A stretch of 64,000 nt of DNA from Acidobacteriota bacterium (GCA_016178075.1 JACOUA010000329.1:3539-67538); one strand, 5' to 3'; numbered from the stretch's first letter, positions 10,958-58,125 are shown. Translations and numbers: made by a program. Notes: generated by a model from the letters alone, not told the origin.

Positions 10958-11072
10958 TACTCAGTCTTCAGTTTTCAGTTTTCAGTTTTCAGTTCTAAAC
11001 CTGCGACCTGAAGCGAAGGACGGGTCACCTTGTCAACTGATAACTGATAACTGAAAACTGATCACTACTCAG
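10957..11072. repeat. Heptamer-periodic inverted repeat, word CAGTTYT / ARAACTG
   Basis: Left arm CAGTCTTCAGTTTTCAGTTTTCAGTTTTCAGTTCT, ~35-nt spacer, right arm AACTGATAACTGATAACTGAAAACTGATCAC. Lies between the GT2 stop and the ABC exporter start. Confidence 0.85.
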
Positions 11073-14157: not shown

Positions 14158-14164
14158 TATTTAG

Positions 14165-14445
14165 TTTGCGGCGGGGCCCCACCCCCACCGCCTGCCACCG
14201 CTCGCTCACGCTCGCGGCGTTGATTACTTGCGACGATCCCTCTCCCAGGCATTCTCGGTGGGGGCCCCACCCCCACCGCCTGCCATCCGCCTTCGCCAAG
14301 GCTACGGCGGACAAGCGGCCTTGCCCGCCGACCAGCCTCCGTCAAGGCTTCGGCGGTCCGCCGTCGCTTCAGCGAAGGCGGAAGCTCGAAGAGCGGAGGC
14401 GGGTCGCTCACGCTCGCGGCGCTGACTGGTGGCGACGATCCGTTT
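14165..14445. repeat. Nested/tandem copies of the ~140-nt GC-rich interspersed repeat (copy 2, plus an internally deleted copy)
   Basis: GGGGCCCCACCCCCACCGCCTGCC occurs twice (~14172 and ~14262). CGCTCACGCTCGCGGCG..GCGACGATCC also occurs twice. 14256-14441 aligns to 1183-1330 with a ~50-nt insertion. Fills the ugd/GT4 divergent spacer. Confidence 0.85.
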
Positions 14446-15710: not shown

Positions 15711-15811
15711 CAGTTCTCAGTCATCAGTTCACAGTTCTCAGTTAAGGCGAGGACTGACAGACAACCGAGAACACCCTGAGAACTGATAACTGAAACCTGA
15801 TAACTACTGGT
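15711..15811. repeat. Heptamer-periodic inverted repeat, word CAGTTYT / ARAACTG
   Basis: CAGTTCTCAGTCATCAGTTCACAGTTCTCAGTT ... CTGAGAACTGATAACTGAAACCTGATAACTACTG, between two co-directional GT4 genes. Confidence 0.85.
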
Positions 15812-17080: not shown

Positions 17081-17928
17081 CCGACCTCGCCATCGTCATT
17101 GTCAGCTACCAGGCACGCGAGCACCTGGAACGCTGTCTCGCTTCGCTGGGGGCTGCTCCACCGCAGCGGTCGCACGAAATCGTGGTGGTGGACAACGCGT
17201 CGAGTGACGGAAGCGCCGACCGCGTCGCGGCCGAATGGCCGTCGGTGACGCTGATCCGGCTCCCGGACAACAGGGGGTTCGCCGCCGCGACCAACGTCGG
17301 CATTCGGCGGACGCGCAGTGAATTCGTGCTGCTCCTGAACAGCGACGCGATCGTGCCGTCAGGCGCACTCGATCGGCTCGTGGCCGCGCTCGAGCGACAC
17401 GCTGACGCCGCCGCGATCGGGCCGCGCCTCGTCGACGACACGGGGCAGGTTGAACTCTCGTTCGGCCGCATGTTCTCGCCGCTGAACGAGCTGCGGCAAA
17501 AGCTCCTCGTTCGGGCCTCTCGGTCGGGGATTCCGGGCGCACGGGCCTATGTGCAGCGACTCGTCTCGCGACCCCGGACGCCGGACTGGATCAGTGGGGC
17601 GTGCCTGCTCGTCCGCCGGGCCGACGCCGATCGAGCCGGCCTGCTCGACGAGCGCTTCTTTCTGTACGCGGAAGACGTGGACTTCTGCGCGCGGCTGCGC
17701 GCGCTCGGCCGCCTGATCCGCTTCGCGCCGGAGATCGACGTCGTGCACGCGCGCGGGCAGTCGGTCGCGTTCGACCCTCGCGCCGCCGAGGCGCACTATC
17801 GACGCAGCCAGCTCGCGTTCTACGCGAAGCACGCGCCGCGCTGGCTGCCATGGCTGCGGCTCTATCTCGCACTACGCGGAAGGCTCCCGCCGAGTCGGGA
17901 TTCGGGCGTCGGGATTCGGGATTCGTAG
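17077..17928 (+). CDS. Glycosyltransferase family 2
   Basis: LAIVIVSYQAREHLERCLASL, VVVDNASSDGS, LNSDA. ATGA overlap with the upstream GT4. The last ~12 codons and the stop lie in a heptamer repeat arm. Confidence 0.87.
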   Translation: MTDLAIVIVSYQAREHLERCLASLGAAPPQRSHEIVVVDNASSDGSADRVAAEWPSVTLIRLPDNRGFAAATNVGIRRTRSEFVLLLNSDAIVPSGALDRLVAALERHADAAAIGPRLVDDTGQVELSFGRMFSPLNELRQKLLVRASRSGIPGARAYVQRLVSRPRTPDWISGACLLVRRADADRAGLLDERFFLYAEDVDFCARLRALGRLIRFAPEIDVVHARGQSVAFDPRAAEAHYRRSQLAFYAKHAPRWLPWLRLYLALRGRLPPSRDSGVGIRDS

Positions 17929-17988
17929 GCGGCGTGTCCCGCTGCGTGGGGCCATCGAATCCCGAGCCCCGATCCCGAATCCCGAGCC
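17891..17988. repeat. Heptamer-periodic inverted repeat, word GGGATTC / GAATCCC
   Basis: GAGTCGGGATTCGGGCGTCGGGATTCGGGATTCG ... CGAATCCCGAGCCCCGATCCCGAATCCCGAGC. The left arm supplies the GT2 C-terminus (..DSGVGIRDS*). Confidence 0.85.
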
Positions 17989-23223: not shown

Positions 23224-23308
23224 TAGTTTACAGTTCTCAGTTTTCAGTTTTCAGTTTTCAAGGCGCTGTTTCAACTGACGACTGACAACTGACAACTGAA
23301 AACTGTTC
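23224..23308. repeat. Heptamer-periodic inverted repeat, word CAGTTYT / ARAACTG
   Basis: ACAGTTCTCAGTTTTCAGTTTTCAGTTTTCA-aggcgctgtt-TCAACTGACGACTGACAACTGACAACTGAAAACTGT. The TCAGTT core pairs, with one mismatch per heptad. Confidence 0.88.
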
Positions 23309-23309
23309 T

Positions 23310-24689
23310 TTAGCGCGCGAGCTGTCGCAGGCGTTGCATGGCGGCGACGGCTTCGGCTCCTGTGACTGGCCGCGTGGGTTGGAAGGTCTCGCCGTCGAGG
23401 AGCGGCATCACACCCGAGGAGACCGCCAGCGCCGCGGCGGGATACACGAGGTTGCCGGGATTCACGTCGGCGATGCGGGGGCGGGCCTTGCGCCAGTCCG
23501 CCGAGAGGCGCGGCCGCCGAAGGGCCACGAGATTGAGCAGGCGGCTCACCGCCTGCGCCATCTCTCCACGGCGTACCACCGCGCCGGGCTGGAACGTGTG
23601 ATTCGGGTAGACCTCCATCACGCCCGCCGACACGACCGGGAGGATCCAGGTGGCGGCCCAGTGATTGCGCGTATCGGTCGCGACGACGGAGCCGGGCCGA
23701 CGCGCACTCTGGACGATGTCGGCGAGGTTGACACCGACGAGCGCCGCCAGCGCCCCCCGCGTGAGCTGCGGTGCGCTCTCAATCGCGCGATACTCCGCGG
23801 GCAACCCCGCGAGCGCCGCCTTCTCCCTGAGGCCTTCCAGCCGCCGGCCGACGTCGGTCGACGACTCGATGGCCATCGCCTTGGTATAGGCCGCCGCGGC
23901 CGCGTCGAGATCGTCCTTGAGCTCGTAGATCTCCCCCATCTGAACGAGCGAGCGGGCATCGCTCGGGTCCAGTTCGCTCGCGCGCCGCAAATGCTCGAGC
24001 GCCTGGTCGAGATCGTCGTCCGCGCGATCCTCGAGGCCGAGTTCTCGATAGAGGAACGCGCTCTCGGGCGAGGCCTCGATGGCTATCTTGTAAATCTGCC
24101 GGGCCTGATCGTGCCGCCCGGCCGCGGCCGCCTGCCGGGCGCTCGTGACGAGCGACTGCGTGTTCTGAAACCGCAGCACCTCGACTCGCCGGCGGACGTC
24201 GGCGAGAGCCGTGGCGTCGCCGGATTTCGCCAACGCCGCTTCGAACGAGTCGAGTGCTTCCGCGGGACGTCCCAGCGCCAGCAGCGCCTGGCCGCGCCCG
24301 ACGAGCGCCGGCACGTAATCGCTCGACGTCTTCAGCGCCTTCTCGAAGGTGCCCAGCGCCGGCTGTGCGCGATCGCCCGCGAGCTCGACGTAGCCAAGTC
24401 CCGCGATCGACGGGTAGAAGGTGGGTTGACGGCGGAGCGCCGCGCCAAATTCCTGCTCGGCGGTGCGGAGATCGCCGGCCTGAAGAAACTGCCAGCCGCG
24501 CTCGTGGCGCGAGGTCACGACGGCCGGCGCGTTGGCCGGCATGGATGGAAACACGAAGTCCGGATACTTCGGCGACGCGACGGTCGGCACGGCCGACAAG
24601 CGCTCGCGCGAGGCGCAGCCGGCGAGGTCGATCGCCGCCAGCGCCGCCAGCGCGCACGCCGCGCCGCGATGCCATCGGCCGGCCGTCAC
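23310..24689 (-). CDS. TPR-repeat lipoprotein with C-terminal SLH-like repeats
   Basis: Lipobox LAGCAS, several TPR-like A/L/Y-rich repeats, and two C-terminal F.P...V.R.E.A SLH-like segments. Confidence 0.7.
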   Translation of the reverse strand: MTAGRWHRGAACALAALAAIDLAGCASRERLSAVPTVASPKYPDFVFPSMPANAPAVVTSRHERGWQFLQAGDLRTAEQEFGAALRRQPTFYPSIAGLGYVELAGDRAQPALGTFEKALKTSSDYVPALVGRGQALLALGRPAEALDSFEAALAKSGDATALADVRRRVEVLRFQNTQSLVTSARQAAAAGRHDQARQIYKIAIEASPESAFLYRELGLEDRADDDLDQALEHLRRASELDPSDARSLVQMGEIYELKDDLDAAAAAYTKAMAIESSTDVGRRLEGLREKAALAGLPAEYRAIESAPQLTRGALAALVGVNLADIVQSARRPGSVVATDTRNHWAATWILPVVSAGVMEVYPNHTFQPGAVVRRGEMAQAVSRLLNLVALRRPRLSADWRKARPRIADVNPGNLVYPAAALAVSSGVMPLLDGETFQPTRPVTGAEAVAAMQRLRQLAR

Positions 24690-27855: not shown

Positions 27856-27984
27856 AAAAAGTTATCAGTGCACAGTTCTCAGTTTTCAGGTTCGGACCTC
27901 GCCTGCTGCGCCTCGGCGAAATCGCTTCGGCAGAGGCCGTGAGCTCCAAACTGCGAACTGTGAACTGACAACTGAAAACTTTCT
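27856..27984. repeat. Heptamer-periodic inverted repeat, word CAGTTYT / ARAACTG; probable intrinsic terminator of glpX on the minus strand
   Basis: AAAAAGTTATCAGTGCACAGTTCTCAGTTTTCAG ... ACTGCGAACTGTGAACTGACAACTGAAAACTTT. On the minus strand the hairpin is followed by TTTTT. Confidence 0.85.
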
Positions 27985-28972
27985 AGAATCGGATCTTGAC
28001 GTCATCCCCGTCGCGGACGTGGATGCTGTCGATGAAACGGATGCGCCGCGGCTTGGTCTGCATCACGATCGAGCTCGTGCGGGTCCCCTCGCCAAAGAAG
28101 CGCACGCCGCGCATCAGCGTGCCGTCGGTGACGCCGGTGGCGGCAAACACGATCGATTCGCCCGAGGCCAGGTCTTTCGAGGTGTACACCCGCTTCAGGT
28201 CCCTGATCCCCATCTCGCGGCAGCGCTTCTCGTGCTCGGGCTTCGAGATGACGAGCCGGGCGAAGATCTCACCGTTCAGGCATCGCATCGCCGCGGCCGT
28301 CAACACGCCTTCGGGCGCGCCACCGGTCCCCATGACGGCGTGGACACCGCTGCCCACAACCGCGGCCGCAATGCCGGCCGACAGATCACCGTCGCTGATC
28401 AGGCGTATTCGGGCCCCGGTCTCGCGGATGTCCGCGATGAGCTTCTGGTGCCGGTCGCGGTCCAGCACGATGACGACCAGGTCCTCGACCCGCCGATCGA
28501 GGCAGCGCGCAATCGCCTGCAGGTTGTCCGAGACCGGGGCATCCAGGCTCACGGCGTGTCTCGAGCTCGGCCCGACCACCAGCTTCTCCATGTACAGGTC
28601 CGGGGCGTGGAGAAGCCCGCCTTTTTCGGACGCCGCCAGCACCGCCAGCGCGTTGGGCGAGCCGGTCGCGCACAGGTTCGTCCCCTCCAGGGGATCGACG
28701 GCGATGTCCACCTGGTCGTACTGCTCGCTGTCGGCGTGCCGCGTGTGCGCGAGGCCGACTTTCTCGCCGATGAAGAGCATCGGCGCCTCGTCGCGCTCGC
28801 CCTCGCCGATCACGATCGTGCCGTCGATCGGGACGGTATCCATGACGCGCCGCATCGCTTCGACGGCCACATCGTCGGAATGGTGCCGATCGCCCTGTCC
28901 CATGGTCTGGGCGCAGGCGATCGCCGCCTCTTCCACGACCCGCAGAAACTCCAACGACAGGTCTGCTTGCAT
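27983..28972 (-). CDS. glpX: Class II fructose-1,6-bisphosphatase
   Basis: 329 aa. [38 protein letters not shown]. Confidence 0.93.
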
Positions 28973-31083: not shown

Positions 31084-31257
31084 AATTGACGATTGGCGAT
31101 TGGAGATTGACGATTGATTGTTGATTGGCGAATGGGCGGAATTGCCAGGAACGAAGGACGATTGAGAGCAATTCCGATCAGGCGTCCTTGATTCGTCAAT
31201 TCCGCGCCATCGTCAATCGCCAATCAATCCTCAATCGTCACTCGCCAATCGTCAATG
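31084..31257. repeat. ~175-nt nested hairpin, heptamer word GATTGRC / GYCAATC
   Basis: Left arm ATTGACGATTGGCGATTGGAGATTGACGATTGATTGTTGATTGGCG. Right arm CGCCATCGTCAATCGCCAATCAATCCTCAATCGTCACTCGCCAATCGTCAAT. The centre holds CGGAATTG..CAATTCCG and AAGGACG..CGTCCTT sub-hairpins. Confidence 0.88.
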
Positions 31258-33820: not shown

Positions 33821-34881
33821 TGCGAGTTGTCGTAGCCATGTCGGGCGGCGTGGATTCCTCCGTCGCCGCGGCCCTGCTCGTCGAGCAGGGGCACGAGGTC
33901 ATCGGGCTGTCGATGCAGCTCTACGATCAGCAGCAGGGCGAGGTGCGCTTTGGAAGCTGCTGCACGCTGGACGATCTCCACGACGCGCGGCGCGTGGCCC
34001 AGCGGCTCGGCATTCCGCACTACATCCTGAACTTCGAGCGGCAGTTCGACGATCACGTCGTCTCGAACTTCGTCCGCGAGTACCTGACGGGGCGCACGCC
34101 GATCCCGTGCGCGCACTGCAACAGTGACCTGAAGTTCTCGGCGCTGCTCGAGCGGGCGCGCGCGCTGGGTGCCGACGGCGTGGCGACGGGCCATTACGCC
34201 CGCGTCGCGCGCGGCGCCGCCGGCAGGCTGACGCTCCGGCGCGGCGCCGACCGGGCCAAGGACCAGTCCTATTTCCTGTTCTCCCTCACGCAGGATCAGC
34301 TCGATCACGCGCGGTTCCCGGTCGGGGACCTCGCGAAGTCCGAGGTCCGCGATCATGCGCGACGCCTCGACCTGCCGGTCGCCAACAAGCCCGACAGCCA
34401 CGAAATCTGCTTCATCCCCGACGGTGAGTACGCCGGGTTCGTCGAGCGTCATGCCGCCTCAGGCGTCGGAAGCGGGTGGATAATGAATCACGAAGGGCGC
34501 CCGCTTGGTCGTCACGACGGCATTCACCGGTTCACCGTCGGCCAACGGAAGGGGCTCGGTCTTTCGGGCGCGCATCCCTTGTACGTGCTGGAGCTTCGTC
34601 CCGAGTCGCAGACCGTCGTCGTCGGGCCGCGCGCCGCGCTCGAGAAGGTGACGCTGACCGCGTCCGGCGTGAACTGGGTCGGGGGCGCGCCTCCAGAGGC
34701 GCGCGTGACGGTCACCGCGCAGATTCGCCATCGGCACCAGGCCGCGCCCGCTTCCTGGCGTTCGCTCGCCTGTGATCGTCTCGCCCTCGAATTCGAGACG
34801 CCCCAAACCGCGATCACGCCCGGGCAGGCGGTGGTCCTGTATGACGGGGATGAAGTGCTGGGCGGAGGTTGGATCGATTAG
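33820..34881 (+). CDS. mnmA: tRNA 2-thiouridine(34) synthase
   Basis: MRVVVAMSGGVDSSVAA PP-loop, CAHCNS. TAATG overlap with the desulfurase. The ORF-track start 33298 is an upstream out-of-gene extension. Confidence 0.93.
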   Translation: MRVVVAMSGGVDSSVAAALLVEQGHEVIGLSMQLYDQQQGEVRFGSCCTLDDLHDARRVAQRLGIPHYILNFERQFDDHVVSNFVREYLTGRTPIPCAHCNSDLKFSALLERARALGADGVATGHYARVARGAAGRLTLRRGADRAKDQSYFLFSLTQDQLDHARFPVGDLAKSEVRDHARRLDLPVANKPDSHEICFIPDGEYAGFVERHAASGVGSGWIMNHEGRPLGRHDGIHRFTVGQRKGLGLSGAHPLYVLELRPESQTVVVGPRAALEKVTLTASGVNWVGGAPPEARVTVTAQIRHRHQAAPASWRSLACDRLALEFETPQTAITPGQAVVLYDGDEVLGGGWID

Positions 34882-35037
34882 GACCCGTCCCGGAATAAGT
34901 GTGCCATTCTGGGCGTCGAGGCGCCCGCCCGGCAAGGCGCGAGGAGCGCGCATACCGGGCGTATGTAAGCGACGAGCAACGAAGCCCGGCGGGATGCATC
35001 GGCGTCCAGAATGGTGCACTTATTCCGGGACGGGTCC
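34881..35037. mobile_element. MITE-like hairpin element with ~35-bp terminal inverted repeats and TTA flanks, inserted between the mnmA and trxB stop codons
   Basis: GGACCCGTCCCGGAATAAGTGTGCCATTCTGG ... CCAGAATGGTGCACTTATTCCGGGACGGGTCC. TTA lies on both sides (34878-80 and 35038-40). The core is shared with 49051-49255. Confidence 0.6.
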
Positions 35038-36009
35038 TTAGGCGGTCACTTGCGCTTCGCCGAGGTGCTGCGGGAGCCCCTCGAGGTATTTCTCGGCGTC
35101 CATCGCCGCCATGCACCCCGATCCTGCGGCCGTGACGGCCTGCCGGTACACGTGATCCTGCACATCACCGCAGGCGAAGACGCCCGGGACGTTGGTCCGC
35201 GCGCCCGAGTGCGTCAGGATGTAGCCGTTCGGATCCATCTCGAGCTGTCCGGTGAACAGCCTGGTGTTCGGTGTGTGGCCGATCGCCACGAACACGCCGT
35301 CGACCGCAAGACCGCCGGCCTCGCCGGTTGCCGTATTCGTCCACGTGAGGCCGGTCACCTCGCCCTTGTCGCCGGCGACGATGTCGTCGACGACGGTGTT
35401 CCAAAGGAACGAGATCTTCGTGTTGGCAAAGGCTTTGTCCTGCATGATCTTCGACGCCCTCAGCCGGTTGCGCCTGTGGATGACCGTCACGTGGGAGGCG
35501 AATTTCGTCAGAAACAGGGCTTCTTCCATCGCGGAATCGCCGCCGCCGACCACGGCGATCGGACGCCCTCTAAAGAAGTAGCCGTCGCACGTCGCGCACG
35601 TCGAGACGCCGTGCCCCATGAGGGTTCGCTCGCTCGGGAGGCCGAGCAGACGCGCCGACGCGCCGGTCGCGACGATGACCGTTCGGGCGCGATGGTTCTC
35701 GCCATCCGAGGTCACGACGAACGGCCGAGCCCTCAGATCCGCCGCGTTGACATCGCGAGCGATGAGCTCGGCACCGAACCGCTCGGCCTGCGCGCGCATT
35801 TCCGCCATCAGGTCCGGTCCCAGGATGCCTTCCCGGTGCCCCGGATAGTTCTCGACGAGCGTCGTCAGCATGAGCTGCCCGCCGGCCTCGGCCCCCTCGA
35901 ACACGAGCGGGTTGAGATTGGCGCGGGCGGCATACAGCGCCGCCGTCAGGCCGGCGGGGCCCGAGCCGATGACGATCACGTTGCGAAGGTCTGACATGTT
36001 CACTTTCAC
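35038..36009 (-). CDS. trxB: Thioredoxin-disulfide reductase
   Basis: [17 protein letters not shown], redox-active [16 protein letters not shown]. Confidence 0.93.
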
Positions 36010-36012
36010 TTC

Positions 36013-36116
36013 TGGCTGTCAGCTCTCAGCTGTCGGCTTTCAGCCGTCGGCCTACACCTTCATTCGAACTGCAGGTCTTGTTCTAGCTGAGAGCTGACAG
36101 CTGAGAGCTGAGAGCT
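36013..36116. repeat. Heptamer-periodic inverted repeat, word CAGCTNT / ANAGCTG
   Basis: GGCTGTCAGCTCTCAGCTGTCGGCTTTCAGC ... GCTGAGAGCTGACAGCTGAGAGCTGAGAGC, between the trxA stop and the trxB start. Confidence 0.88.
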
Positions 36117-38880: not shown

Positions 38881-38897
38881 CGAACAGAAAGCGCGCT

Positions 38898-39009
38898 GTA
38901 GTTTTCAGTTCTCAGTGCTCAGTTGTCAGTTCAAAGACTCCAGCCTGCGGCCGGTGTCCTTGAAAAACCACGGCGTCGGAAAACTGACAACTGAGAACTG
39001 AAAACTATT
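38898..39009. repeat. Heptamer-periodic inverted repeat, word CAGTTYT / ARAACTG, between convergent genes
   Basis: GTAGTTTTCAGTTCTCAGTGCTCAGTTGTCAGTT ... AAAACTGACAACTGAGAACTGAAAACTATTTT. Confidence 0.88.
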
Positions 39010-40045
39010 TTGTCGCGGGTTTCAGCCGTTCGGTGAGCCAGTTGAAGAGGTGCCGCGTTTCCCAGAATCGGCCCGCGTTCGACCGGGCGCCGAGGATCAC
39101 GACGGCGACTTGCTGGTTGAGGTCGGGAACCTGAAGGAGTGTCGCGAGACAGTACCCCGCCTTGCCGATGAAGCCGGTCTTGCTGGCGCGGACGTCCAGA
39201 TCGCCGCCGACCAGCTTGTTGGTGTTGTGGATCGTCACCGTGCGGCGGTTCGTGCTGACCTCGAACTCCGGCGTCCGCATGATGACGGCCATCCGCTGGT
39301 CGGTCCCGGCGTACGCGATCAACCGCGCCATGTCGTACGCAGACGAGACGTTGTCCGCACTGAGCCCGGACGGGTCGTGATACTCGGTGCTTCGCAGCCC
39401 GAGCTCGGCCGCCTTCTCGTTCATGCGGACGACGAACCCGGCGGGGCCGCGCGAAGAATAGCGCGCCAGCGTCCTCGCGGCCGCGTTGTCCGACGCGATG
39501 AGCGTCAGGTGCAGCACGTCGTCGAGCGACACCTGCTCGTTGGCGCGAAGATACGTGATCGACGCCCCGCGGACGTCGTTTCGATCGATCGTCACAGCGC
39601 GGTTGAGGTCGGGGCTGTCCTCGAGAAAGACCAGCGTCGTCATCACCTTCGTGATGCTCGCGATGGACCGCTGGTTCTGTGCGTTCTCTTCCCAGAGAAT
39701 CTCGCCGGTGTCCGGGTTGTAGATGATGGCCGCCTCGGCCCGAATGTCGGGCACGAGGTTGCCGTGCTGATCCATGCGGAAGCGCGGCGTCTGCGCTTCC
39801 TGCAGTTGTCGCGCACGCGCCGCCGCTTGCGCCCGAGCCAGACGTGCGCGCCTCGCCTGCGCCGCCGTCGAGGAGTAGGTCGGGCGCCTGGCCGCTGGCT
39901 TCTTGGCGGTCGTTCCCTGCCCGCACACCTGGGGGGCGTGGGCGAGGGAGATCCCAACCAGCGCGACAAAGACCCCGGCAGCCCGGAGAAGCCGAGCTTT
40001 CAACATGCCCGGATGTGTGATGGAAACTGACACCAAACGTGTCAT
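39005..40045 (-). CDS. D-alanyl-D-alanine carboxypeptidase (peptidase S11, PBP5/6-like)
   Basis: Signal peptide, SITK (SxxK), SDN, KTGF motifs in the canonical order. Confidence 0.88.
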   Translation of the reverse strand: MTRLVSVSITHPGMLKARLLRAAGVFVALVGISLAHAPQVCGQGTTAKKPAARRPTYSSTAAQARRARLARAQAAARARQLQEAQTPRFRMDQHGNLVPDIRAEAAIIYNPDTGEILWEENAQNQRSIASITKVMTTLVFLEDSPDLNRAVTIDRNDVRGASITYLRANEQVSLDDVLHLTLIASDNAAARTLARYSSRGPAGFVVRMNEKAAELGLRSTEYHDPSGLSADNVSSAYDMARLIAYAGTDQRMAVIMRTPEFEVSTNRRTVTIHNTNKLVGGDLDVRASKTGFIGKAGYCLATLLQVPDLNQQVAVVILGARSNAGRFWETRHLFNWLTERLKPATK

Positions 40046-42586: not shown

Positions 42587-42896
42587 CGGTTTTTCGGCGC
42601 TCCGTGGTGGGGTGGCCACTATTTCCTCTCGCGCCGGCGCTGTCAAGCACGGTTGCACACTGCGCACGCGATCCAAAAACACGGATGCGAACAGAGGGAT
42701 TCATTGGATCGCGGCAGCCGAGCGACGCGACTTTCCAATCTAAGTCTTCAGACGGCAACTACTTGCGGACATTACTCAGGTGCCGATGTGTGGCACCCAG
42801 CTTGCTCGGACCGGAGTATTCCGAACTCGCGCGTTCTTGAGTACAGTCCATCGATCAAACCATTGCCGCTGAACGACCTTCCTTGGAGGGCATTTC

Positions 42897-45839
42897 ATGA
42901 GACGTTGGAGGATTGAGGTGTTGAGGCCAGTTCTGTACGTCGCTCTGCTGGCGCTCGCAATTGGGATCGCCAGCCCCGCGGCGGCGCAGGAGTTCCGCGG
43001 GCGCATCAGCGGAACCGTCACCGACAACAGCGGCGGCGTGCTCCCGGGCGTGACCGTCACCGCCACCAGCCCGGCGATGATTCAGCCGCAGGCGGTGGTG
43101 ACCGGCGCGGATGGCGTGTACCGCCTGATCGCGCTTCCGGCCGGCCTCTATACGGTGACGTTCGAGCTGTCTGGTTTCAACTCGCTCAAGCGCGAGGGGA
43201 TCCGCGTCGTCATCAACCAGACATTGACGCTGAACGCCGAGCTGCAGGTCGCCTCACTGCAAGAGACCGTGACGGTGAGCGGTGAGTCGCCCGTTGTCGA
43301 CACGTCGACGACCACGGTCGGCACGAACTTCACGAAGGAGCTGCTGACCGAGATTCCGAACGCACGTGACATCTGGGCAGCCATGGCGCAAGCCCCTGGC
43401 TTCCAGGTGACCGGCTACGATGTCGGTGGCTCGCACACCGGAACTCAGACCGGCTACGTTACCTACGGCGTCAGCCAGCAGAACACCACTCGGATCGACG
43501 GTGTCAACACGAGCGAGGGCACGAGCGCCAACGCCGGGTACTTCGACTTCGGGTCGTTCGAAGAGTTCCAGCTCGGCGGCGCCGGGAACGACGCCGCACA
43601 GGACGTGCCCGGCGCGTCGCTGAACATCACCGTCAAGTCCGGCGGCGACCGGTTCAGCGGCAACTGGTACAGCGACTGGGAGAACCACAGCACCATCAGC
43701 GACAACGTGCCCGACTACCTCAAGACGCCGTTCCAGAAGAGCAGCGACGGATTCTTCACCCGGACGGCCGTTCAACGTGGCAATCAGATCGATCGGCAGT
43801 ACGACATCAACCCGAACGTCGGCGGCCCGCTCTGGAGAGGCAAGGCGTGGTTCTTTACCTCGTGGCGTCTCAACGATCAATACAAGTACGTGCTCGGGTT
43901 CGACGAGCTCGCGCGGTCGAAGCTCAGCAACAAGTACACCCTGAAGGGTACGTTCCAGCTCTCGAAGAACAACCAGCTCATCGCCTTCCTCAACAAGCGC
44001 GAGAAGCTGCAGGCCCTGCGCGAGTTTGGCCCGACCGTCCCGCTGTCGGCCGCCTACTATCAATCGTCTCGGAACTATCCGTGGAAGTTCGAGTGGACGA
44101 GCGTGCTGTCGAGCCGCATGTTCCTCGATGTGCTGGCAGGCAACTGGTACAACTTCTTCCCGCTGCGACCGCAGACCGAGGTGGGCGTGTGGCCGATCGA
44201 CAAGTTCGTGCCCGGGCGAATCAACCTGAACGACAACACCTATTTCGCGGGCGGCGCGAACGATTCATATCAGGACCAGAAGCGGTTCAAGCCGCAGACG
44301 TTGACGACCCTTTCGTTCTTCCAGGACGGGTGGCACGGCGCACACGACTTCAAGTTTGGCTTCGAGGCGCGCCGCGACCGTCGCATCCTCGGAAACGACG
44401 AGCCGTTCAACATCTTCTACCGCGACAGAGACGGTGTCCCCTCCGAACTTGAAATCTACAACGGTCCCGTGGCGCCGACCAACGACGTCAACGTGCGCAG
44501 CGCGTTCGTGCAGGACAACTGGAAGTTCAACGAGAAGCTGACGCTCAACCTCGGCTTCAGGGTCGATCACTACACCGACGGCTGGCCCGAGCAGCAGTTC
44601 GCGCCGGCAGGCGTTCCCGCGCTGGCCAACGCGACCGATCCGCGGATCGTCAGCTTCTTCGCGGCGAAAACGATTTCGGCGCAGATTGTGGCGAGATCGA
44701 CAACGGCCGGACCCCGCGCCGGGTTCGCGTACGACCTGGCGGGCAATGGGAAGTCGGTCGTCAAGGGCTACTACGGCCGGTTCTATTTCAACTCCGCCGA
44801 CCTGATTGCCGACAACCAAAACCCGGTGGGGTTCGCCCGACTGCGGTATCAGTTCAGGGACGCCAACGGCAACAAGCTCCTCGACAGCCCGGCCGAATTG
44901 GGAAATTTCATCACGACGGCCGGCGGCGGCGGGTTCGTCACGGTCGATCCGAACCTGAAACGGCCCTACGGCGACGAGGTGTCGGCGCACTACGAGCAGG
45001 AGATTCGAGAAGGTCTCTCGGGTCGCTTCTCGTATGTCTACAAGAACCTCCGCAATGAGTGGGCGGAGGTCGACCTCGGCCGCGTCAACGCCCAGACCAT
45101 TCCCGTCAACGTCGTCGATCGAGGACCCGACGGGATTCTGGGTAATGCGGATGATGCGACCCGAACGCTGTACGACATCCCGGCCGGGACGCCGAGCCAG
45201 CGCACGTTCACGAATCCGACGAGCCCGCAGTACAACTCCGACTACAACACGGTGGAGTGGGCGGTCAACCGGCGGCTCAAGGGCGGCTGGATGGTGCTGA
45301 CATCGTTCGAGTACTCCTGGCTGAAGGAGTTCGTCGGCGCCACGTCTTCGACGAGCAGCACCGGCGCGGCGGGGAACACGAAGACGTACTCGTGGAACCG
45401 CAACCTCCGGCAGGCGGATCGCGAAACCACGACGATCTGGAACTACAAGCTGATCGGACGATACATGCTGCCGCTAGAGGTCGGGATCAGCGGGTCGTAC
45501 AAGCTCCAGAGCGGACGCCGGTGGGGCCGCGCCGTGAGCTTGAGCGTGCCGAACCTGGGCGCCCAGACCGTCCGCGTGGAACCCGTCACCTCGCATCGCG
45601 CCCCGAACGTCAGCATCGTCGATCTCCGGTTCGACAAGTCGATCAAGATTCCGGGGAACAACGGTGGCCGCTTGACCGCGATGGTGGACGTGTTCAACCT
45701 GTTGAACTCGGATGTCCCCATTACGTTTCGTACGCTGACCGGCAACGTGGCGGCCGGACAGCCGTACGGCAACTTCGGGGAAGTGACCGCGATCCTCGAC
45801 CCGCGCATCGTGCGGTTCGGCATCCGGTACGACTTCTAA
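42897..45839 (+). CDS. TonB-dependent receptor-like outer-membrane protein with an N-terminal carboxypeptidase-regulatory-like domain (paralogue 1)
   Basis: Signal peptide, GRISGTVTDNSGGVLPGVTVTATSP...DGVYRLIALPAGLYTVTFELSGF, large beta-barrel, C-terminal ..RIVRFGIRYDF. GGAGGG RBS 6 nt before the ATG. Confidence 0.88.
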   Translation: MRRWRIEVLRPVLYVALLALAIGIASPAAAQEFRGRISGTVTDNSGGVLPGVTVTATSPAMIQPQAVVTGADGVYRLIALPAGLYTVTFELSGFNSLKREGIRVVINQTLTLNAELQVASLQETVTVSGESPVVDTSTTTVGTNFTKELLTEIPNARDIWAAMAQAPGFQVTGYDVGGSHTGTQTGYVTYGVSQQNTTRIDGVNTSEGTSANAGYFDFGSFEEFQLGGAGNDAAQDVPGASLNITVKSGGDRFSGNWYSDWENHSTISDNVPDYLKTPFQKSSDGFFTRTAVQRGNQIDRQYDINPNVGGPLWRGKAWFFTSWRLNDQYKYVLGFDELARSKLSNKYTLKGTFQLSKNNQLIAFLNKREKLQALREFGPTVPLSAAYYQSSRNYPWKFEWTSVLSSRMFLDVLAGNWYNFFPLRPQTEVGVWPIDKFVPGRINLNDNTYFAGGANDSYQDQKRFKPQTLTTLSFFQDGWHGAHDFKFGFEARRDRRILGNDEPFNIFYRDRDGVPSELEIYNGPVAPTNDVNVRSAFVQDNWKFNEKLTLNLGFRVDHYTDGWPEQQFAPAGVPALANATDPRIVSFFAAKTISAQIVARSTTAGPRAGFAYDLAGNGKSVVKGYYGRFYFNSADLIADNQNPVGFARLRYQFRDANGNKLLDSPAELGNFITTAGGGGFVTVDPNLKRPYGDEVSAHYEQEIREGLSGRFSYVYKNLRNEWAEVDLGRVNAQTIPVNVVDRGPDGILGNADDATRTLYDIPAGTPSQRTFTNPTSPQYNSDYNTVEWAVNRRLKGGWMVLTSFEYSWLKEFVGATSSTSSTGAAGNTKTYSWNRNLRQADRETTTIWNYKLIGRYMLPLEVGISGSYKLQSGRRWGRAVSLSVPNLGAQTVRVEPVTSHRAPNVSIVDLRFDKSIKIPGNNGGRLTAMVDVFNLLNSDVPITFRTLTGNVAAGQPYGNFGEVTAILDPRIVRFGIRYDF

Positions 45840-45932: not shown

Positions 45933-46038
45933 GTACGTCGCCCTCTCTTGCCGTTAGCGGCTCTACTCCGCTACAGTTCACGCTTATACTCCACGTATCG
46001 GGCGGCCGTCTCAGCGATCTACCGAGGAGGGCAGTTTC

Positions 46039-48939
46039 ATGAGACCTCGAAGCATCGGCCTTTGGGTCGCGCTGATCGCGCTGGCGATCGGCCTGGCCAC
46101 CCCCGCGGCGGCCCAAGAGCTCCGTGGGCGCATCACCGGCACGGTCACCGACAACACCGGTGCCGTGCTACCTGGCGTCTCGGTCACGGCCAGCGGACCC
46201 GCGCTCATCCAGCCGCAGAGCAGCGTCACTGGAGCCGATGGGAGCTACCGCTTCCCGGCGCTCCCGACCGGCGTCTTCACCTTGACGTATGAGCTTGCGG
46301 GATTCCAGACGCTCAAGCGCGAACAGATCCGCCTGGGGTTGAACATGACCCTGACGGTGAACGTCGAGCTGCAGCTCTCGTCGCTGCAGGAAACCGTGAC
46401 GATCACCGGTGAATCACCCACGGTCGACGTCAAGACCACCGCCATCGGGACCAACTTCACCAAGGAGCTGCTGCAGGACATTCCCAACGCACGGGACATT
46501 TGGGCGGCGATGGCGCAGGCCCCAGGGTTCCAGATGACCGGCTTCGACGTCGGCGGGTCGCACACCGGGACGCAGACGGGGTACATCACCTACGGTGTCG
46601 GCGACCAGAACAAGACGTTTCTCGAGGGCATCAACGTGACTGAAGGCACCGGCGGAAACGCCGGCTACTTCGACTTTGGATCCTTCGAGGAATTTCAGCT
46701 CGGTGGCGCCGGCAACATGGGAGAGCAAGCGGGCCCCGGCGCGTTCCTCAACCTGACCATCAAATCGGGGGGCGATCGATTCGCCGGGCAGTTCTACCTG
46801 GACTACGAAAACGATGCCACGATCTCGGACAACGTGCCGAGCGCTTTCAAAGCGCCGGGCGGTGTCGACTCACGCGGGTTCAAGGCCCCAACGATCCGCG
46901 ACCCGGCGACCGGACAGTTGTTGGGCCTGGCGCGCGGCAACCCGATCACCAAGCAGTACGACCTGAACGTGAATGGCGGCGGCCCGATCAAGCGCGGCAA
47001 GGCCTGGTTTTTCACGAGCTACCGCGACAACAATCAGTACACGACGATTTTGGGCCTTCCCGGGGTGACCGCGCAGAGTCAGCTCGTGAACTGGCCGACG
47101 CTCAAGGGCACGTATCAGATCAGCAAGAGCAATCAGTTCATCGCCTTCTACAACGAGCGATCCAAGCTGCAACCGCTGCGCGGCCTCTCGCTTGCCCGGC
47201 CTGCGGAATCGGCACAGTGGCAGGATTCGAAGAACCGGCCGCAAAAGTACGAGTGGACGAGCGTCCTTTCCCAGCGGGCGTTCCTCGACATTCAGTACTC
47301 GTACTGGGGTAACTACTTCCCGCTCTTCCCGACGCAGACGAAGTCCACGTCGACCGAGGGAGTCCCCGTCGGTCGCATCGACCTCACGACCAACCAGGAG
47401 TCCGGCGCCAACGTCCTGTACCACTTCCGCACGACGCTGAAGCCGCAGTTCTCGGGAAGCCTTGCCTACTTCCAGGACAACTGGGGCGGCACGCACAACT
47501 TCAAGTTCGGGTTCGAGGCGTATCGCGAGCGGAGGAAGTTCCTCCGCTTCCAACCGGGCAACATCTACTACCGGGATCGCGAGGGCCGGCCGTCGGAAGT
47601 CGACATCTACAACACCCCCAATGAAGCCGCCGACGATTCCAATAGCCTGAGCATTTACGTCCAGGATGGGTGGAGCGTCTCGCGGGCGCTGACCATCAAT
47701 GCCGGGGTTCGGCTGGATCACTACAGGCTCGGCTGGCCGGCTCAGAGCTTCACACCTGAGCAAACGCAGTACTTCCAGCCGGTCAACACGCCCGACACGA
47801 CCGTCGCGAAGTTCAATTCGGTGAGCCCGCGCGTGGGGCTCGCCTGGGATTTCGGCGGACAAGGAAAGAGCGTCGTCAAAGCCTTTTACGGACGCTTCTA
47901 CTACAACCCCAGCACCGACATCAGCTCGTTGGAGAATCCCGTGAGTCAGTCGGCCCGGCGCTACCAGTTCAACGACCTGAACGGAAACCGGGTGCTCGAC
48001 GGGCCGCAAGAGCTGGGACGCTTACTGTCGAGCGTGGGCGGTGGCGGCAACGTGAGGGTCGATCGCGATCTCGAGCACGCCTGGGGCCAGGAAGTCTCGA
48101 CGCATTTCGAGCGCGAGCTGGCCGAGGCGCTCTCGGCTCGAGTCTCCTACGTGTACAAGGGCACGCGAAACGGGTGGGCCGAGGTGGACCTCGCTCGAGT
48201 CAATGCTTATACAGCGCCGTTCCCATTTGTGGATGTCGGGCCCGACAACATTCGCGGCACATCAGACGACCAGACGCTCAATCTCTTCGATCGCCCGGCT
48301 GGCACTCCGAGTCAACGAACGTTCACGAATCCCGGACGCATTCAGGGAGTGCCGGCGTACGAGGGTGATTACCACACCATCGAGCTGGCGCTAAACCGCC
48401 GGTTCAAGGACAAGTGGCTCCTCCTCACGTCGTTCGAACAAACCTGGGCCGACGACTTCCGCGGCACGGGCGTGGGAACTGGGACACTCGCGACGGTGCA
48501 ACAGGGCACGGCGTTCCTCTGGCAGCCGAACCGGCGACGCCTGGGTCGAGAAGCGACCACGTTCTGGAACTACAAGGCGATCGGCCGCTATGTCTTCCCC
48601 TGGGACATCGGCGTCAGCGGGTCCTACAAGTTCCAGAGCGGCTTCAACTACGCGAGAACGATCAGCGTAAGCCTGCCCATCGCCGGAAGCGAAGAGATCC
48701 GGACCGGGCCACTAAAGGACACCCGCGCCCAAAACGTCCACATCGTTGATGTGCGGCTCGAGAAGATGATCAACTTCGGTGCTCGCCGCGGAAAGTTCAG
48801 CGCCATGGTCGACGTTTTCAACGCGCTGAACGCGAACCCGCTGACCAACTTCCGCGTCGTCACCGGGTCGCGCTACAACGAAGTGATCGCGCTGCTCGAT
48901 CCGCGCATCGTGCGGTTCGGCGTGCGGTACGAGTTCTAG
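46039..48939 (+). CDS. TonB-dependent receptor-like outer-membrane protein with a carboxypeptidase-regulatory-like domain (paralogue 2)
   Basis: Collinear with paralogue 1 (GRITGTVTDNTGAVLPGVSVTASGP...; ..RIVRFGVRYEF). Same GGAGGG-N6-ATGAGA translation start context. Confidence 0.88.
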   Translation: MRPRSIGLWVALIALAIGLATPAAAQELRGRITGTVTDNTGAVLPGVSVTASGPALIQPQSSVTGADGSYRFPALPTGVFTLTYELAGFQTLKREQIRLGLNMTLTVNVELQLSSLQETVTITGESPTVDVKTTAIGTNFTKELLQDIPNARDIWAAMAQAPGFQMTGFDVGGSHTGTQTGYITYGVGDQNKTFLEGINVTEGTGGNAGYFDFGSFEEFQLGGAGNMGEQAGPGAFLNLTIKSGGDRFAGQFYLDYENDATISDNVPSAFKAPGGVDSRGFKAPTIRDPATGQLLGLARGNPITKQYDLNVNGGGPIKRGKAWFFTSYRDNNQYTTILGLPGVTAQSQLVNWPTLKGTYQISKSNQFIAFYNERSKLQPLRGLSLARPAESAQWQDSKNRPQKYEWTSVLSQRAFLDIQYSYWGNYFPLFPTQTKSTSTEGVPVGRIDLTTNQESGANVLYHFRTTLKPQFSGSLAYFQDNWGGTHNFKFGFEAYRERRKFLRFQPGNIYYRDREGRPSEVDIYNTPNEAADDSNSLSIYVQDGWSVSRALTINAGVRLDHYRLGWPAQSFTPEQTQYFQPVNTPDTTVAKFNSVSPRVGLAWDFGGQGKSVVKAFYGRFYYNPSTDISSLENPVSQSARRYQFNDLNGNRVLDGPQELGRLLSSVGGGGNVRVDRDLEHAWGQEVSTHFERELAEALSARVSYVYKGTRNGWAEVDLARVNAYTAPFPFVDVGPDNIRGTSDDQTLNLFDRPAGTPSQRTFTNPGRIQGVPAYEGDYHTIELALNRRFKDKWLLLTSFEQTWADDFRGTGVGTGTLATVQQGTAFLWQPNRRRLGREATTFWNYKAIGRYVFPWDIGVSGSYKFQSGFNYARTISVSLPIAGSEEIRTGPLKDTRAQNVHIVDVRLEKMINFGARRGKFSAMVDVFNALNANPLTNFRVVTGSRYNEVIALLDPRIVRFGVRYEF

Positions 48940-49017
48940 GCACGAAGGCACGAGGGCTGGCCGCGCCCGGGCACGGTGAGGCGCGGCCGACCCCACAAGG
49001 ACACGAAGAAGACTGTG

Positions 49018-49044
49018 AGGCCGGGGTTACCCGGCCTTTTTTTT
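49018..49044 (+). terminator. Rho-independent terminator (GGCCGGG-gtta-CCCGGCC + T8)
   Basis: 7-bp GC stem followed by TTTTTTTT. Confidence 0.85.
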
Positions 49045-49050
49045 AGCTTA

Positions 49051-49255
49051 GTACCGCGTTTCATAATTACGGTGAGGCACCGAGGGCGCCGAGGCGCCCG
49101 CCCCGCAAGGCGCGAGGAGGGAGAATACCGGGAGTATTTGACCGACGAGCAACGCCGCGGAACCGGGGCCCCCAACGCGCGTTTTCCAGCGCGTTGGGGT
49201 GGTGGGGCGGGATGCATCGGCGGCCGAATGCCACCGTAATTATGAAACGCGGTAC
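49051..49255. mobile_element. Composite MITE-like hairpin element: 25-bp perfect terminal inverted repeats, TTA flanks, shared core and a nested CCCCAACGCG module
   Basis: GTACCGCGTTTCATAATTACGGTG ... CACCGTAATTATGAAACGCGGTAC, with TTA on both sides. The core GAGGCGCCCGCC..GCAAGGCGCGAGGAG..ATACCGGG.GTAT..GACGAGCAACG..GGCGGGATGCATCGGCG is shared with 34881-35037. CCCCCAACGCGCGTTTTCCAGCGCGTTGGGGTGG (~49170-49210) is nested inside. Confidence 0.6.
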
Positions 49256-49257
49256 TT

Positions 49258-49349
49258 AGGACTCACGACTCAAGGCTCATGGAGAAGGCATTCTATGAGC
49301 CATAAGACGTCAGCCGTGGGCCATGAGCCGTCAACCGTGAGCCGTGCCG
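49258..49349. repeat. Heptamer-type inverted repeat, word GAGCCNT / ANGGCTC
   Basis: GGACTCACGACTCAAGGCTCATGG ... CCATGAGCCGTCAACCGTGAGCCGTGCC, immediately upstream of the spermidine-synthase-like gene. Confidence 0.65.
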
Positions 49350-54080: not shown

Positions 54081-54181
54081 GCAGGCTCTAGGCTCCGGGC
54101 TTTAGGCTTGAGGCCTATTCCCGAGCCGGCTTCACCTGATCACGGTCAGGCCCAAAGCCACGAGCCTAAAGCCTAGAGCCA
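54081..54181. repeat. Heptamer-type inverted repeat, word AGGCTNN / NNAGCCT
   Basis: CAGGCTCTAGGCTCCGGGCTTTAGGCTTGAGGCC ... GGCCCAAAGCCACGAGCCTAAAGCCTAGAGCC. Confidence 0.8.
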
Positions 54182-54777: not shown

Positions 54778-54856
54778 GTCAGAAGTGAGAAGTGGGAAGG
54801 TAGAAGTGAGAAGTGGCTTTCTTTCTTCTTCCTTCTTCCTTCTCACTTCTCACTTC
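54778..54856. repeat. Heptamer-type inverted repeat, word GAGAAGT / ACTTCTC, between convergent Prx and VWA genes
   Basis: CAGAAGTGAGAAGTGGGAAGGTAGAAGTGAGAAGTGG ... CTTCTTCCTTCTTCCTTCTCACTTCTCACTTC. Confidence 0.85.
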
Positions 54857-57053: not shown

Positions 57054-57173
57054 TGGCTATCAGCTATCAGCTGTCAGCTATCAGCTCCGCCTATCAGCGT
57101 CGGGAAGGCCGCACATCGGTGCGGCCGAAATCAAACGAGGATGCTGAGAGCTGAAAGCTGAGAGCTGTTAGCT
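57054..57173. repeat. Heptamer-periodic inverted repeat, word CAGCTNT / ANAGCTG, with a central GGCCGCAC-atcg-GTGCGGCC hairpin
   Basis: GGCTATCAGCTATCAGCTGTCAGCTATCAGCTC ... GCTGAGAGCTGAAAGCTGAGAGCTGTTAGC. Confidence 0.88.
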
Positions 57174-57176
57174 CGT

Positions 57177-57974
57177 TCACCGCCGCCTCGGCGTGCCGCC
57201 AGCTTTCTTCGACTGGGTCGTCCGGGCGCGCGTGCCGGCGCCTGGGCGGGCTTTCTTCGGCGCAGCCTTCGACCCGGGCTGCGAGCGCCCCGAGCCCCGT
57301 CGAGGGGCGGCGCGCCTCTGCGAACCTCGTCCTGCCGCCGCGGAACGCCGCGCGCGTGCTTCGGCGCCCTTCGACCTGGGCTCAGGGCGCCCCGAGCCTT
57401 GTCGAGTGGCAGCCGCCGAAGGCTGGCGAGCGCCGCGGTGCACCAGCGCGAATCGTGTCTGGTCACCGAGCGAGTGGTAGCCCCAGATCTCGGTGACCTC
57501 AATCTGATTGTCCGAACAAAGTCGGCGCGCCGCTTCCACCGACCCGCTCGGCACGTACAAGTAGAAAGGCGCGCGGAACCGAGCCATCGGCCCCCACTGG
57601 GCGAGCGCTTCCATATTGTTGACCGATTCACCGGTTTCCACCTCGACGATGCCGTGGATCTTCCGCCCACCGTGAAGCGAGGTGAGGACCAAATCGGGAT
57701 AGAGCGTCGCGGTCCCGGTTCCCGCGCTGGCGGTCTGCTCCGCCCCAAGGTTCGCGGCAACGTTGTACCGCCGGCGCCACCTCGCCTGGAGCTGCCGGAT
57801 CACACGGTCGTGTTCGAGCTGCTCCCTGACGGGGCGCACGAGGATGGGGCTCACGATTCCTCCATCGCTAAGCCTGCGGAGCCTGATTGGGGGGTCAGTC
57901 AGTGGGTAACCGAGCCCCAGACTATAGCATGAACCTCGAACCGTACCTGGGGGCAACGTGAACGCACCTTGCAT
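57177..57974 (-). CDS. Hypothetical protein, possible PD-(D/E)xK-like core, with a repeat-derived basic C-terminal tail
   Basis: The core ..VREQLEHDRVIRQLQ...LYPDLVL...GIVEVETGESV...FYLYVPSG.. loosely resembles a restriction-endonuclease-like fold (weak). The last ~90 aa are encoded by two palindromic repeat copies. The start is uncertain. Confidence 0.5.
   Translation of the reverse strand: MQGAFTLPPGTVRGSCYSLGLGYPLTDPPIRLRRLSDGGIVSPILVRPVREQLEHDRVIRQLQARWRRRYNVAANLGAEQTASAGTGTATLYPDLVLTSLHGGRKIHGIVEVETGESVNNMEALAQWGPMARFRAPFYLYVPSGSVEAARRLCSDNQIEVTEIWGYHSLGDQTRFALVHRGARQPSAAATRQGSGRPEPRSKGAEARARRSAAAGRGSQRRAAPRRGSGRSQPGSKAAPKKARPGAGTRARTTQSKKAGGTPRRR
57266..57409. repeat. Two tandem copies of the GC-rich palindromic repeat variant within the 3' part of the hypothetical gene
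   Basis: CCTTCGACCCGGGCTGCGAGCGCCCCGAGCCCCGTCGAGGGG and CCCTTCGACCTGGGCTCAGGGCGCCCCGAGCCTTGTCGAGTGG, about 100 nt apart. Confidence 0.82.
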
Positions 57975-58005
57975 TCTTTGCGCCCTGCACCTTCGTGTAC
58001 GCTTA

Positions 58006-58058
58006 GACCGCTATACGGCGCCTTACGAGAATTTCGTTCTCGTTGCCGTAGAGCGGTC
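58006..58058. repeat. Small hairpin element (GACCGCTATACGGC ... GCCGTAGAGCGGTC) with an inner ACGAGAA/TTCTCGT stem, flanked by TTA / CTA
   Basis: Read directly. One mismatch in the 14-bp outer stem. The flanks resemble the TTA flanks of 34881-35037 and 49051-49255. Confidence 0.65.
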
Positions 58059-58084
58059 CTAGGCGCGCACAGCGCGCCTGCGAG

Positions 58085-58125
58085 CCGGGGTCCCCGACGC
58101 GCGTTTTTCAGCGCGTTGGGGTGGG
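58085..58125. repeat. CCCCGACGCG-loop-CGCGTTGGGGTGG hairpin module, copy 3
   Basis: CCGGGGTCCCCGACGCGCGTTTTTCAGCGCGTTGGGGTGGG, upstream of hemE. Confidence 0.75.

Follow-up and report, generated by a model that had tools for sequence, protein, structure and literature searches.

ERIC- and Correia-type elements are small repeats dispersed in intergenic regions, with TA at their junctions and no known mobilising enzyme (PMC2229807, PMC10969869). IS200/IS605 elements have neither terminal inverted repeats nor target duplication, and their subterminal hairpins lie on the same strand (PMC6006769). REP sequences are palindromes of 21-65 nt that carry GTAG or CGTC as a tag at their 5' foot (PMC6006769, PMC3733652), and TIMEs have been shown experimentally to be mobile (PMC4133298). 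The present analysis concerns two hairpin elements found in a 64,000-nucleotide stretch of DNA from an Acidobacteriota bacterium (GCA_016178075.1, JACOUA010000329.1:3539-67538; 66% G+C), hereafter called the window, i.e., element 1 (34881-35037) and element 2 (49051-49255). Bacterial MITEs, or miniature inverted-repeat transposable elements, normally occur in one lineage and are under selection mainly on their tips. Elements 1 and 2 are probably copies of a MITE-like, non-autonomous family of mobile hairpins that is widespread across phyla and has a selected structured core. This family reverses the norm of MITEs: tips and arms diverge and seem to be swapped, while a strand-specific fold of 47 nt stays near constant from Saccharibacteria (~47% GC) to Acidobacteriota (~70% GC).

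The initial annotation of the window had proposed that both elements share a core. This core extends over ~85 nt overall, of which 71 nt align at 87% identity, and contains three exact blocks, each with exactly two occurrences in the window: GCAAGGCGCGAGGAG (34932 and 49105), CGACGAGCAACG (34970 and 49143) and GGCGGGATGCATCGGCG (34988 and 49206). Both elements fold as a near-continuous hairpin, with -121.5 kcal/mol (z -13.8) for element 1 and -138.4 kcal/mol (z -11.3) for element 2; none of 200 shuffles was as good in either case. The arms of the two elements are 83-96% complementary, and the outer inverted arm that had been reported for element 2 is indeed present (28 nt, 96% complementary). 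The first base is G and the last base is C in each element. TTA direct repeats adjoin both ends, at 34878-34880 and 35038-35040 for element 1 and at 49048-49050 and 49256-49258 for element 2; the element boundaries first assigned to the two copies are thus exact. A covariance model run over the window finds these two copies only (111 bits for element 1 and 82 bits for element 2), the next best match being at 14 bits.

Both elements are read on the plus strand. In element 1 (157 nt), the 5' strand of helix P1 (34924-34933, partner strand 34984-34993) is followed by the 5' strand of the core, AAGGCGCGAGGAG (34934-34946), by a variable P2 hairpin, CATAC-cgggc-GTATG with a 3x3 internal loop (34947-34969), and by the 3' strand of the core, CGACGAGCAACG (34970-34981). 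The same succession is found in element 2 (205 nt), with AAGGCGCGAGGAG at 49107-49119, the P2 hairpin AATAC-cggga-GTATT with a GAG/TGA internal loop at 49120-49142, and CGACGAGCAACG at 49143-49154.

The pattern AAGGCGCGAGGAG-N(10-40)-GACGAGCAAC was scanned against 185,579 species genomes, and the core was matched at no fewer than 120 loci belonging to many phyla. Isolates that carry it include four Massilia, Ottowia beijingensis, Pseudomonas koreensis, Methylophaga, Pseudoxanthomonas and Ca. Thiodiazotropha. Carrier contigs of ~100 kb to several Mb belong to Acidobacteriota/Vicinamibacteria, Gamma- and Betaproteobacteria, Verrucomicrobiota, Planctomycetota, Myxococcota and Saccharibacteria; less secure carriers, on shorter contigs of metagenome-assembled genomes (MAGs), are Actinomycetota, Bacteroidota, Thermodesulfobacteriota and one Asgard archaeon. 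Many core matches lie at contig ends, and several 8-kb loci contain two or three copies. Plasmids of P. aeruginosa, Azotobacter, Halomonas and Methylophaga also carry copies, all unannotated; when the plasmid collection was searched with element 1, only chance matches of 25 nt were obtained. Since one viral contig only among 2.9 million contains a copy, phage carriage was rejected.

Searches of catalogues and of the literature were negative. Rfam 15 at gathering score gives no match in the 64-kb window nor in 8 of the loci, and an E-value scan against Rfam returns microRNA noise only (17-19 bits). No paper describing the family was obtained from full-text literature searched by core strings and by family descriptions; a match to GGGCCTGTTAAC corresponds to a primer for the polymerase chain reaction. 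There is no recurrent neighbour gene either: after clustering of ~1,400 flanking open reading frames (ORFs), no family was listed at more than 5 of 120 loci, and the clusters are generic (ABC ATPases, GGDEF proteins, response regulators). A riboswitch, or an RNA paired with an enzyme, was rejected on obtaining only such generic families.

The core lies inside inverted-repeat elements of ~160 or ~270 nt (157-330 nt across the family), and tip-to-tip pairing is observed in ~90 loci. The short form (~157-172 nt), to which both window elements belong, contains one core unit in the order tip, arm, P1, core, P1', arm', tip. In the long form (~265-285 nt), the first tip leads into a core-bearing hairpin 1; a small linker hairpin, CCC-loop-GGG, then separates it from hairpin 2, which ends at the second tip. 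Hairpin 2 carries a diverged core in reverse-complement form, which the covariance model picks up on the opposite strand (28-57 bits); the long element is thus made of two inverted units. In nearly all copies of both forms the core starts 54-63 nt (~57) from the tip.

The tips differ between subfamilies (GGGCC[CT]GT.., GTGGCC.., GTGTCG.., GAACCTGT.., GTACC.., GAACC.. and GGGGGTATG..), many of them being alike in a G start and in a (G)AATAA box at about position 13-20. The arms pair along their whole length and evolve by compensatory change. Element 2 aligns over its full length with loci L113 (Acidobacteria), L104 and L067 (both Thermodesulfobacteriota MAGs), which have the same CATAAATACGGTG arms, and element 1 is matched by L061, L066, L033, L078 and L089. 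Each arm type recurs with the same core in other genomes, and the arms of the two window elements are subfamily variants of one architecture and not unrelated sequences. The initial annotation is therefore followed as to the same core with different arms, not as to arms that would be unrelated. The association of one core with different arms is also seen between P. koreensis and plasmids: in the long form, the internal ~190 nt are ~75% identical between P. koreensis and the P. aeruginosa, Halomonas and Azotobacter plasmids, and the terminal ~30 nt differ. A core tied to one arm type had been named beforehand as the outcome contrary to the initial idea; the core is found with many arm types.

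In three loci (L002, L071 and L119, Ottowia or Rhodocyclaceae-type), the inverted repeat extends past CTAG (TTCAACCTAGAAAC ... GTTTCTAGGTTCAA). Judging from the repeat pattern, either the tips would be longer in these copies or the element would lie within another palindromic repeat. A different arrangement was observed in a Planctomycetota MAG (L047, 1952-2641), where the core hairpin is contained in a 245-bp unit, present as 2.8 tandem repeats at 98% identity and without terminal inverted repeats; another locus of the same genome (L035) has a single core copy.

The initial annotation had noted one compensatory change in the P2 stem, CATAC/GTATG in one copy and AATAC/GTATT in the other, and had seen in it a sign of selection on structure. 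The change is real: in an alignment of 92 distinct copies, the corresponding columns 59/77 are C-G in 49, U-A in 17 and A-U in 12 copies. Moreover, the single pair widens to the whole of P1 and P2, where all 18 pairs show changes on both sides. Standard pairs make up 82% of the cells, against 53% after shuffling and 32-42% when the partner is slid by 1-3 columns. The covariation score is 0.68, a value reached by none of 500 shuffles (0.19 shuffled), and does not exceed 0.16 with the partner slid.

The core itself (~47 nt) forms a helix with G-C pairs and tandem G.A mismatches in alternation. Its outer part consists of G43-C92, G44.A91 and C45.A90, then G46-C89 and C47-G88; its inner part consists of the tandem G48.A87/A49.G86, G50-C85, the tandem G51.A84/A52.G83 and G53-C82. 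The tandem mismatches are predicted to be sheared. Beyond this helix come a third GAG/UGA loop, a G.U pair at the base of P2 and the variable hairpin. The layout was tested on copies found by the covariance model and not by the exact pattern. Among these copies the G.A positions are ~95% invariant, and the G-C pairs between them are replaced by other pairs: G50-C85 by C-G in 6 copies (a GGAG/CGAC strand swap), G53-C82 by C-G in 4 and by G-T in 5, G46-C89 by A-T in 4. The main alignment was gathered by the exact pattern, and the core invariance that it displays is inflated accordingly; nevertheless, in 22 copies outside the pattern selection, the identity to the consensus is 79% at core positions vs. 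56% at stem positions, so that the search pattern does not by itself account for the conservation of the core. It should be added that the GC-rich core is unchanged in elements of 38-47% G+C.

The fold depends on the strand. In short elements the core-bearing strand folds better in 49 of 50 cases, by 14 kcal/mol on average. For the long elements, the top strand gives the better fold of hairpin 1 in 18/24 cases and the bottom strand that of hairpin 2 in 20/24, i.e., each unit is optimised on the strand that reads inwards from its own tip. The orientation relative to flanking genes, on crude ORF calls, is unbiased (++ 20, -- 15, -+ 12, +- 9). The family possesses a structured and strand-specific core under purifying selection.

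Mobility is indicated by the flanks. Perfect 3-nt direct repeats border 13 elements, both window copies included. Within one subfamily and one genome, these repeats are TTA/TTA (L032), TAA/TAA (L091) and TTT/TTT (L068); they change in step at both ends, which argues for target duplication and not for a fixed element end. Most long elements show C-TA-[G...C]-TA-G/A, which is compatible with a TA duplication in an NTAN target. Of 89 copies, 22 lie directly against a stop codon that ends an ORF of 100 codons or more; such a share is to be expected if, in GC-rich genomes, TA-centred targets are supplied chiefly by stop codons. Element 1 takes up all of the intergenic space that separates mnmA (Pfam tRNA_Me_trans, plus strand) from a trxB-like gene (Pyr_redox_2, minus strand), two genes that converge. 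The TA of its left repeat and its first G form the mnmA stop TAG (34879-34881), and its right TTA is the TAA stop of the trxB-like gene. Deletion of element 1 together with one TTA gives GATTAGGCGG, in which the stop codons of mnmA and the trxB-like gene overlap. The convergent trxB-mnmA pair is kept in 80 soil-metagenome relatives, none of which has the element at this place; since the protein identity to these relatives is 68-78%, their empty sites are supportive, not decisive.

Element 2 is a nested composite, as was initially claimed: it has acquired a second, lineage-specific hairpin repeat of 45 nt (49159-49203, plus strand), which is missing from its closest relatives L113, L104 and L067 although they share its arms and core. 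The insertion is a CCGGGGYCCCCRACGCG-loop-CGCGTTGGGGTGG hairpin module. Small modules of this kind stand free at 1821-1855 and 58085-58124 (both on the plus strand), the latter with 84% identity to the nested copy across 55 nt. The string CCCCAACGCG..CGCGTTGGGG, previously attributed to element 2 and to two other sites of the window, is present at 1828-1852 and 49170-49199 (chance expectation 0) and, with one mismatch, at 58092-58121; the three copies share one orientation. No copy occurs in ~1.2 Mb of other loci, and the module is therefore a separate, lineage-specific small repeat. The proposal that such modules insert into apical regions does not hold: the module sits in the 3' strand of element 2, at the P1/core junction and not in the apical loop, and the predicted fold of the element with the module is a three-way junction. 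Another hairpin of ~37 nt (..GCCGTCTTCGGCGAGGCGGTCTTCCGCC..) is found, by comparison with L093, in the right arm of the gammaproteobacterial loci L074 (~6270-6320) and L117 (Ca. Rariloculus-type); nested insertions of small hairpins thus recur in the family.

Taken as a whole, the family has several features of MITEs, i.e., terminal inverted repeats, a short target duplication, a small size, no transposase gene and dispersed copies. In the mechanism proposed here, the elements would be moved in trans by a transposase whose cut at TTA, TAA or CTAG is staggered by 2-3 nt. The termini would be exchangeable and the core would be retained by selection; it would have to fold in one strand and to be recognised by a conserved partner. 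The near constancy of the fold points to such a partner. Likewise, the conservation of the core above that of the tips, the swappable tips and the fixed distance between core and tip suggest that the partner reads the folded single-stranded form. A function in this form was part of the initial annotation and is plausible.

Several points weigh against this mobile, MITE-like reading: (i) a transposase binding double-stranded ends would explain neither the strand-specific fold nor a core conserved above the tips; (ii) no autonomous element with matching termini was found in ~1.2 Mb of loci or in the plasmid matches, and no transposase in the flanks examined by eye or with Pfam; (iii) many long-element flanks (C-TA-[G..C]-TA-G) are palindromic, so that a 2-nt duplication is there indistinguishable from an extended inverted repeat; (iv) the relatives compared reach at most 78% protein identity, and no filled/empty pair between near-identical genomes was obtained; (v) the invariance of 23 core positions is partly ascertainment, since the scan required those positions; (vi) the orientation test rests on crude ORF calls; (vii) some phylum labels come from short MAG contigs (e.g., the Asgard match on a 3.6-kb contig), and MAG binning errors may raise the phylum count. 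As regards candidate autonomous partners, those of long span turned out to be second copies or chance repeats; L092 has PIN-like ORFs, and L043 contains a truncated arm beside an ordinary gene.

Three other explanations have to be weighed against the MITE-like reading. The elements could be palindromic repeats moved as single-stranded DNA, of the IS200/IS605 PATE or REP/RAYT type: a Y1 HUH enzyme would attach to the core in its folded state, cleave the foot of the stem 3' of YTA at both ends and put the strand back 3' of a different YTA. Strand-specific folding, a conserved core with freely covarying arms, the ruler-like constancy of the core-tip distance and the YTA found directly 5' of both junctions in almost all copies would all suit this scheme, and the inverted units of the long form would free excision from the direction of replication. 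However, TTA/TTA, TAA/TAA and TTT/TTT flanks co-vary within a subfamily and a genome, as target duplication predicts; the arms pair tip to tip over their whole length, whereas IS200/IS605 elements have separate subterminal hairpins on one strand; and the long form has its two hairpins optimised on opposite strands. Furthermore, the elements measure 160-280 nt, against 21-65 nt for REPs, and show no GTAG or CGTC tag; no neighbour gene recurs, and the ORFs inspected, those of the ten largest clusters, are ordinary cellular genes, although no search aimed at HUH enzymes was made. The whole-length pairing, the co-varying 3-nt repeats and the opposite-strand hairpins of the long forms are also why the REP/BIME or IS200/IS605 manner of insertion, suggested initially, was abandoned, and we regard this explanation as quite improbable.

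A little less improbable, but still unlikely, is that the elements matter chiefly as RNA, i.e., as a cis-acting hairpin of the 3' untranslated region or intergenic transcript, as is ERIC in Yersinia, mobility serving only to deliver it; the tandem-G.A helix would then be bound or cleaved by a conserved ribonuclease or RNA-binding protein. ERIC and Correia elements do act in transcripts via RNase E and RNase III (PMC2229807, PMC10969869). Only the core strand accommodates G.U pairs (columns 58/78 are G.U in 44 of 92 copies), copies often abut stop codons, element 1 being placed exactly between two stops, and the long form would yield one sense unit in either direction of transcription. Against this stand the absence of an orientation bias relative to flanking ORFs and the position of element 2, which lies outside, and directly 3' of, a terminator-like hairpin plus T-run (49017-49046, plus strand) belonging to the upstream outer-membrane receptor gene. 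In addition, weak host selection on dispersed copies hardly explains a core that is nearly identical across phyla. A further explanation makes the core an independent small RNA gene or a site of recombination (for example a 6S-like RNA or an integron attC site), with incidental inverted repeats. A conserved and structured core would then be expected, and the tandem array of one Planctomycetota locus lacks terminal inverted repeats. This explanation is nonetheless very improbable: no Rfam match reaches the gathering score in the window or in the 8 loci, copies are many and dispersed within a genome (some of them breaking contigs), orthologous sites exist without a copy, and arms and flanking repeats are constant companions of the core. 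Neither RYYYAAC/GTTRRRY end boxes (by inspection, without an attC model) nor a recurrent integrase nearby were seen. An attC site was also rejected because the ends are G..C with TTA or TA flanks and because the only tandem array seen has a 245-bp period. More generally, the sequence or bulge arrangements that define K-turn, hammerhead, twister, signal recognition particle, 6S and attC structures are absent by inspection, Rfam being the only formal test.

With regard to the role of the core in these MITE-like hairpins, it may well be a cis-acting propagation module, read as folded single-stranded DNA or as a cruciform, though this falls somewhat short of an even chance. A motif acting in read-through RNA (stability, processing or protein binding) is a serious possibility of lower rank, and it is rather doubtful that the core does something else or nothing. 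More specifically, though this is rather less likely than not, the tandem-G.A core could be a new structured signal, read in one strand (folded DNA or RNA) by a widely conserved protein that, in place of the tips, would drive propagation in more than six phyla; the arms would act as a measuring stem of ~57 nt, at liberty to vary in sequence and to exchange termini. If so, this would be a mechanism of mobilisation or maintenance that is undescribed for MITEs, and it might account for orphan families such as ERIC, for which to our knowledge a transposase has never been found. From a practical point of view, the family lacks annotation, interrupts assemblies at the ends of contigs, and sits on stop codons and between convergent genes; the model built here could add it to RNA and repeat catalogues.

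Element 2 is flanked by a gene for an outer-membrane receptor of CarboxypepD_reg/TonB type and by a spermidine-synthase/TPR gene. Base composition, the architecture of the receptor gene and the closest relatives of the elements suggest an origin of the window in Acidobacteriota/Vicinamibacteria. The receptor gene (45958-48939) is the second of two adjacent paralogous ORFs of ~970-990 aa that share blocks of 70-88% nucleotide identity; the first (42873-45839) is not followed by such an element.

The window contains other repeats. Two small palindromes without core have xTAG flanks, CTAG-CCGTGCtggCACGG-CTAG at 1764-1785 and TTAG-ACCGCTATACGGC...GCCGTAGAGCGGTC-CTAG at 58003-58062; these TA-centred flanks are like those of the main family. 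A separate repeat family, with its own inverted repeats inside, is found at 1170-1259, 14154-14196 and 14242-14331; its 76-nt block CGGTGGGGCCCCCAC..GCCTTGCCCGCCGA is 96% identical between two sites, the third copy being partial. Intergenic hairpins whose arms are tandem heptamers, e.g., AGTTTTC xN facing GAAAACT xN, are also present, with a unit that varies by site (further units: ATTGACG/ATTGGCG, GCTGTCA/GCTCTCA, GAAGTGA and GGCTCTA). They are located at 7234-7309, 10949-11070, 15712-15809, 17909-17972, 23225-23315, 27860-27991, 31085-31256, 36015-36116, 38886-39017, 49260-49345, 54084-54180, 54778-54856 and 57056-57177. In many related soil-metagenome contigs (e.g., L123, L125, L128, L134, L135, L139, L141 and L142), the spacer between trxB and mnmA is filled by heptamer hairpins, again with different units. 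We know of no description of these hairpins.

The comparison with known systems may be summarised as follows. REP/REPIN-RAYT and IS200/IS605 systems resemble the family by mismatched hairpins on one strand, by inverted pairs as in REPINs and by a short conserved flanking motif (PMC6006769). The family differs from them by its larger size, its tip-to-tip pairing, its co-varying direct repeats and the absence of a GTAG/CGTC tag. An assignment to REP/BIME was rejected on the size (157-330 nt) and on the flanks, which are duplicated TTA, TAA or CTAG and not a fixed internal tag. The P. koreensis long form is similar to TIMEs in size and in its termini starting with GGGG, but the flanks of the family have no 5-bp duplication. 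The P. koreensis form was not retained as a TIME, its search in the plasmid collection giving family members only, none annotated as a TIME, in a collection whose content in TIME-bearing plasmids was not checked.

The IS5/PIF-Harbinger-Tourist and IS630/Tc1-mariner groups are comparable through the TTA, TAA or CTAG targets and the 2-3-nt duplications of the family, and a TWA duplication of 3 nt is compatible with the IS5-family/PIF-Harbinger. The tips GGGCCTGTT.. and GG..(G)AATAAG presumably resemble the ends of IS903 (GGCTTTGTTGAATAAATC), IS5 (GGAAGGTGCGAATAAG) and Tourist/PIF. By analogy, the termini may be of the IS5/PIF or IS630 type. If recognition of the tips were the main constraint, constant tips would be expected; the present family shows the reverse, i.e., variable tips with a constant core.

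ERIC/IRU, Correia/NEMIS and RUP are alike to the family in their size of ~100-300 nt, the absence of ORF, the long imperfect hairpin formed by the arms, the TA junctions with a short duplication and the intergenic dispersal, often just after genes. ERIC likewise has a GAG/TGA internal loop, the potential for tandem G.A pairs and the string GAGCGAACGCAGCC, against GAGCAACGCAGCC in the family. Kinship was tested with the 127-bp ERIC consensus, the ERIC sequence having been verified in E. coli: the covariance model, run on an ERIC locus of E. coli, gave no match with E up to 10, the nhmmer profile none at E up to 100, and the best local alignment scored 25 against 21.7 +/- 2.3 for shuffles. ERIC being undetected by these three tests, the likeness is one of resemblance only. 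Finally, ERIC, Correia and RUP are each confined to one genus or family of bacteria, whereas the present family extends over many phyla with a near-invariant core.

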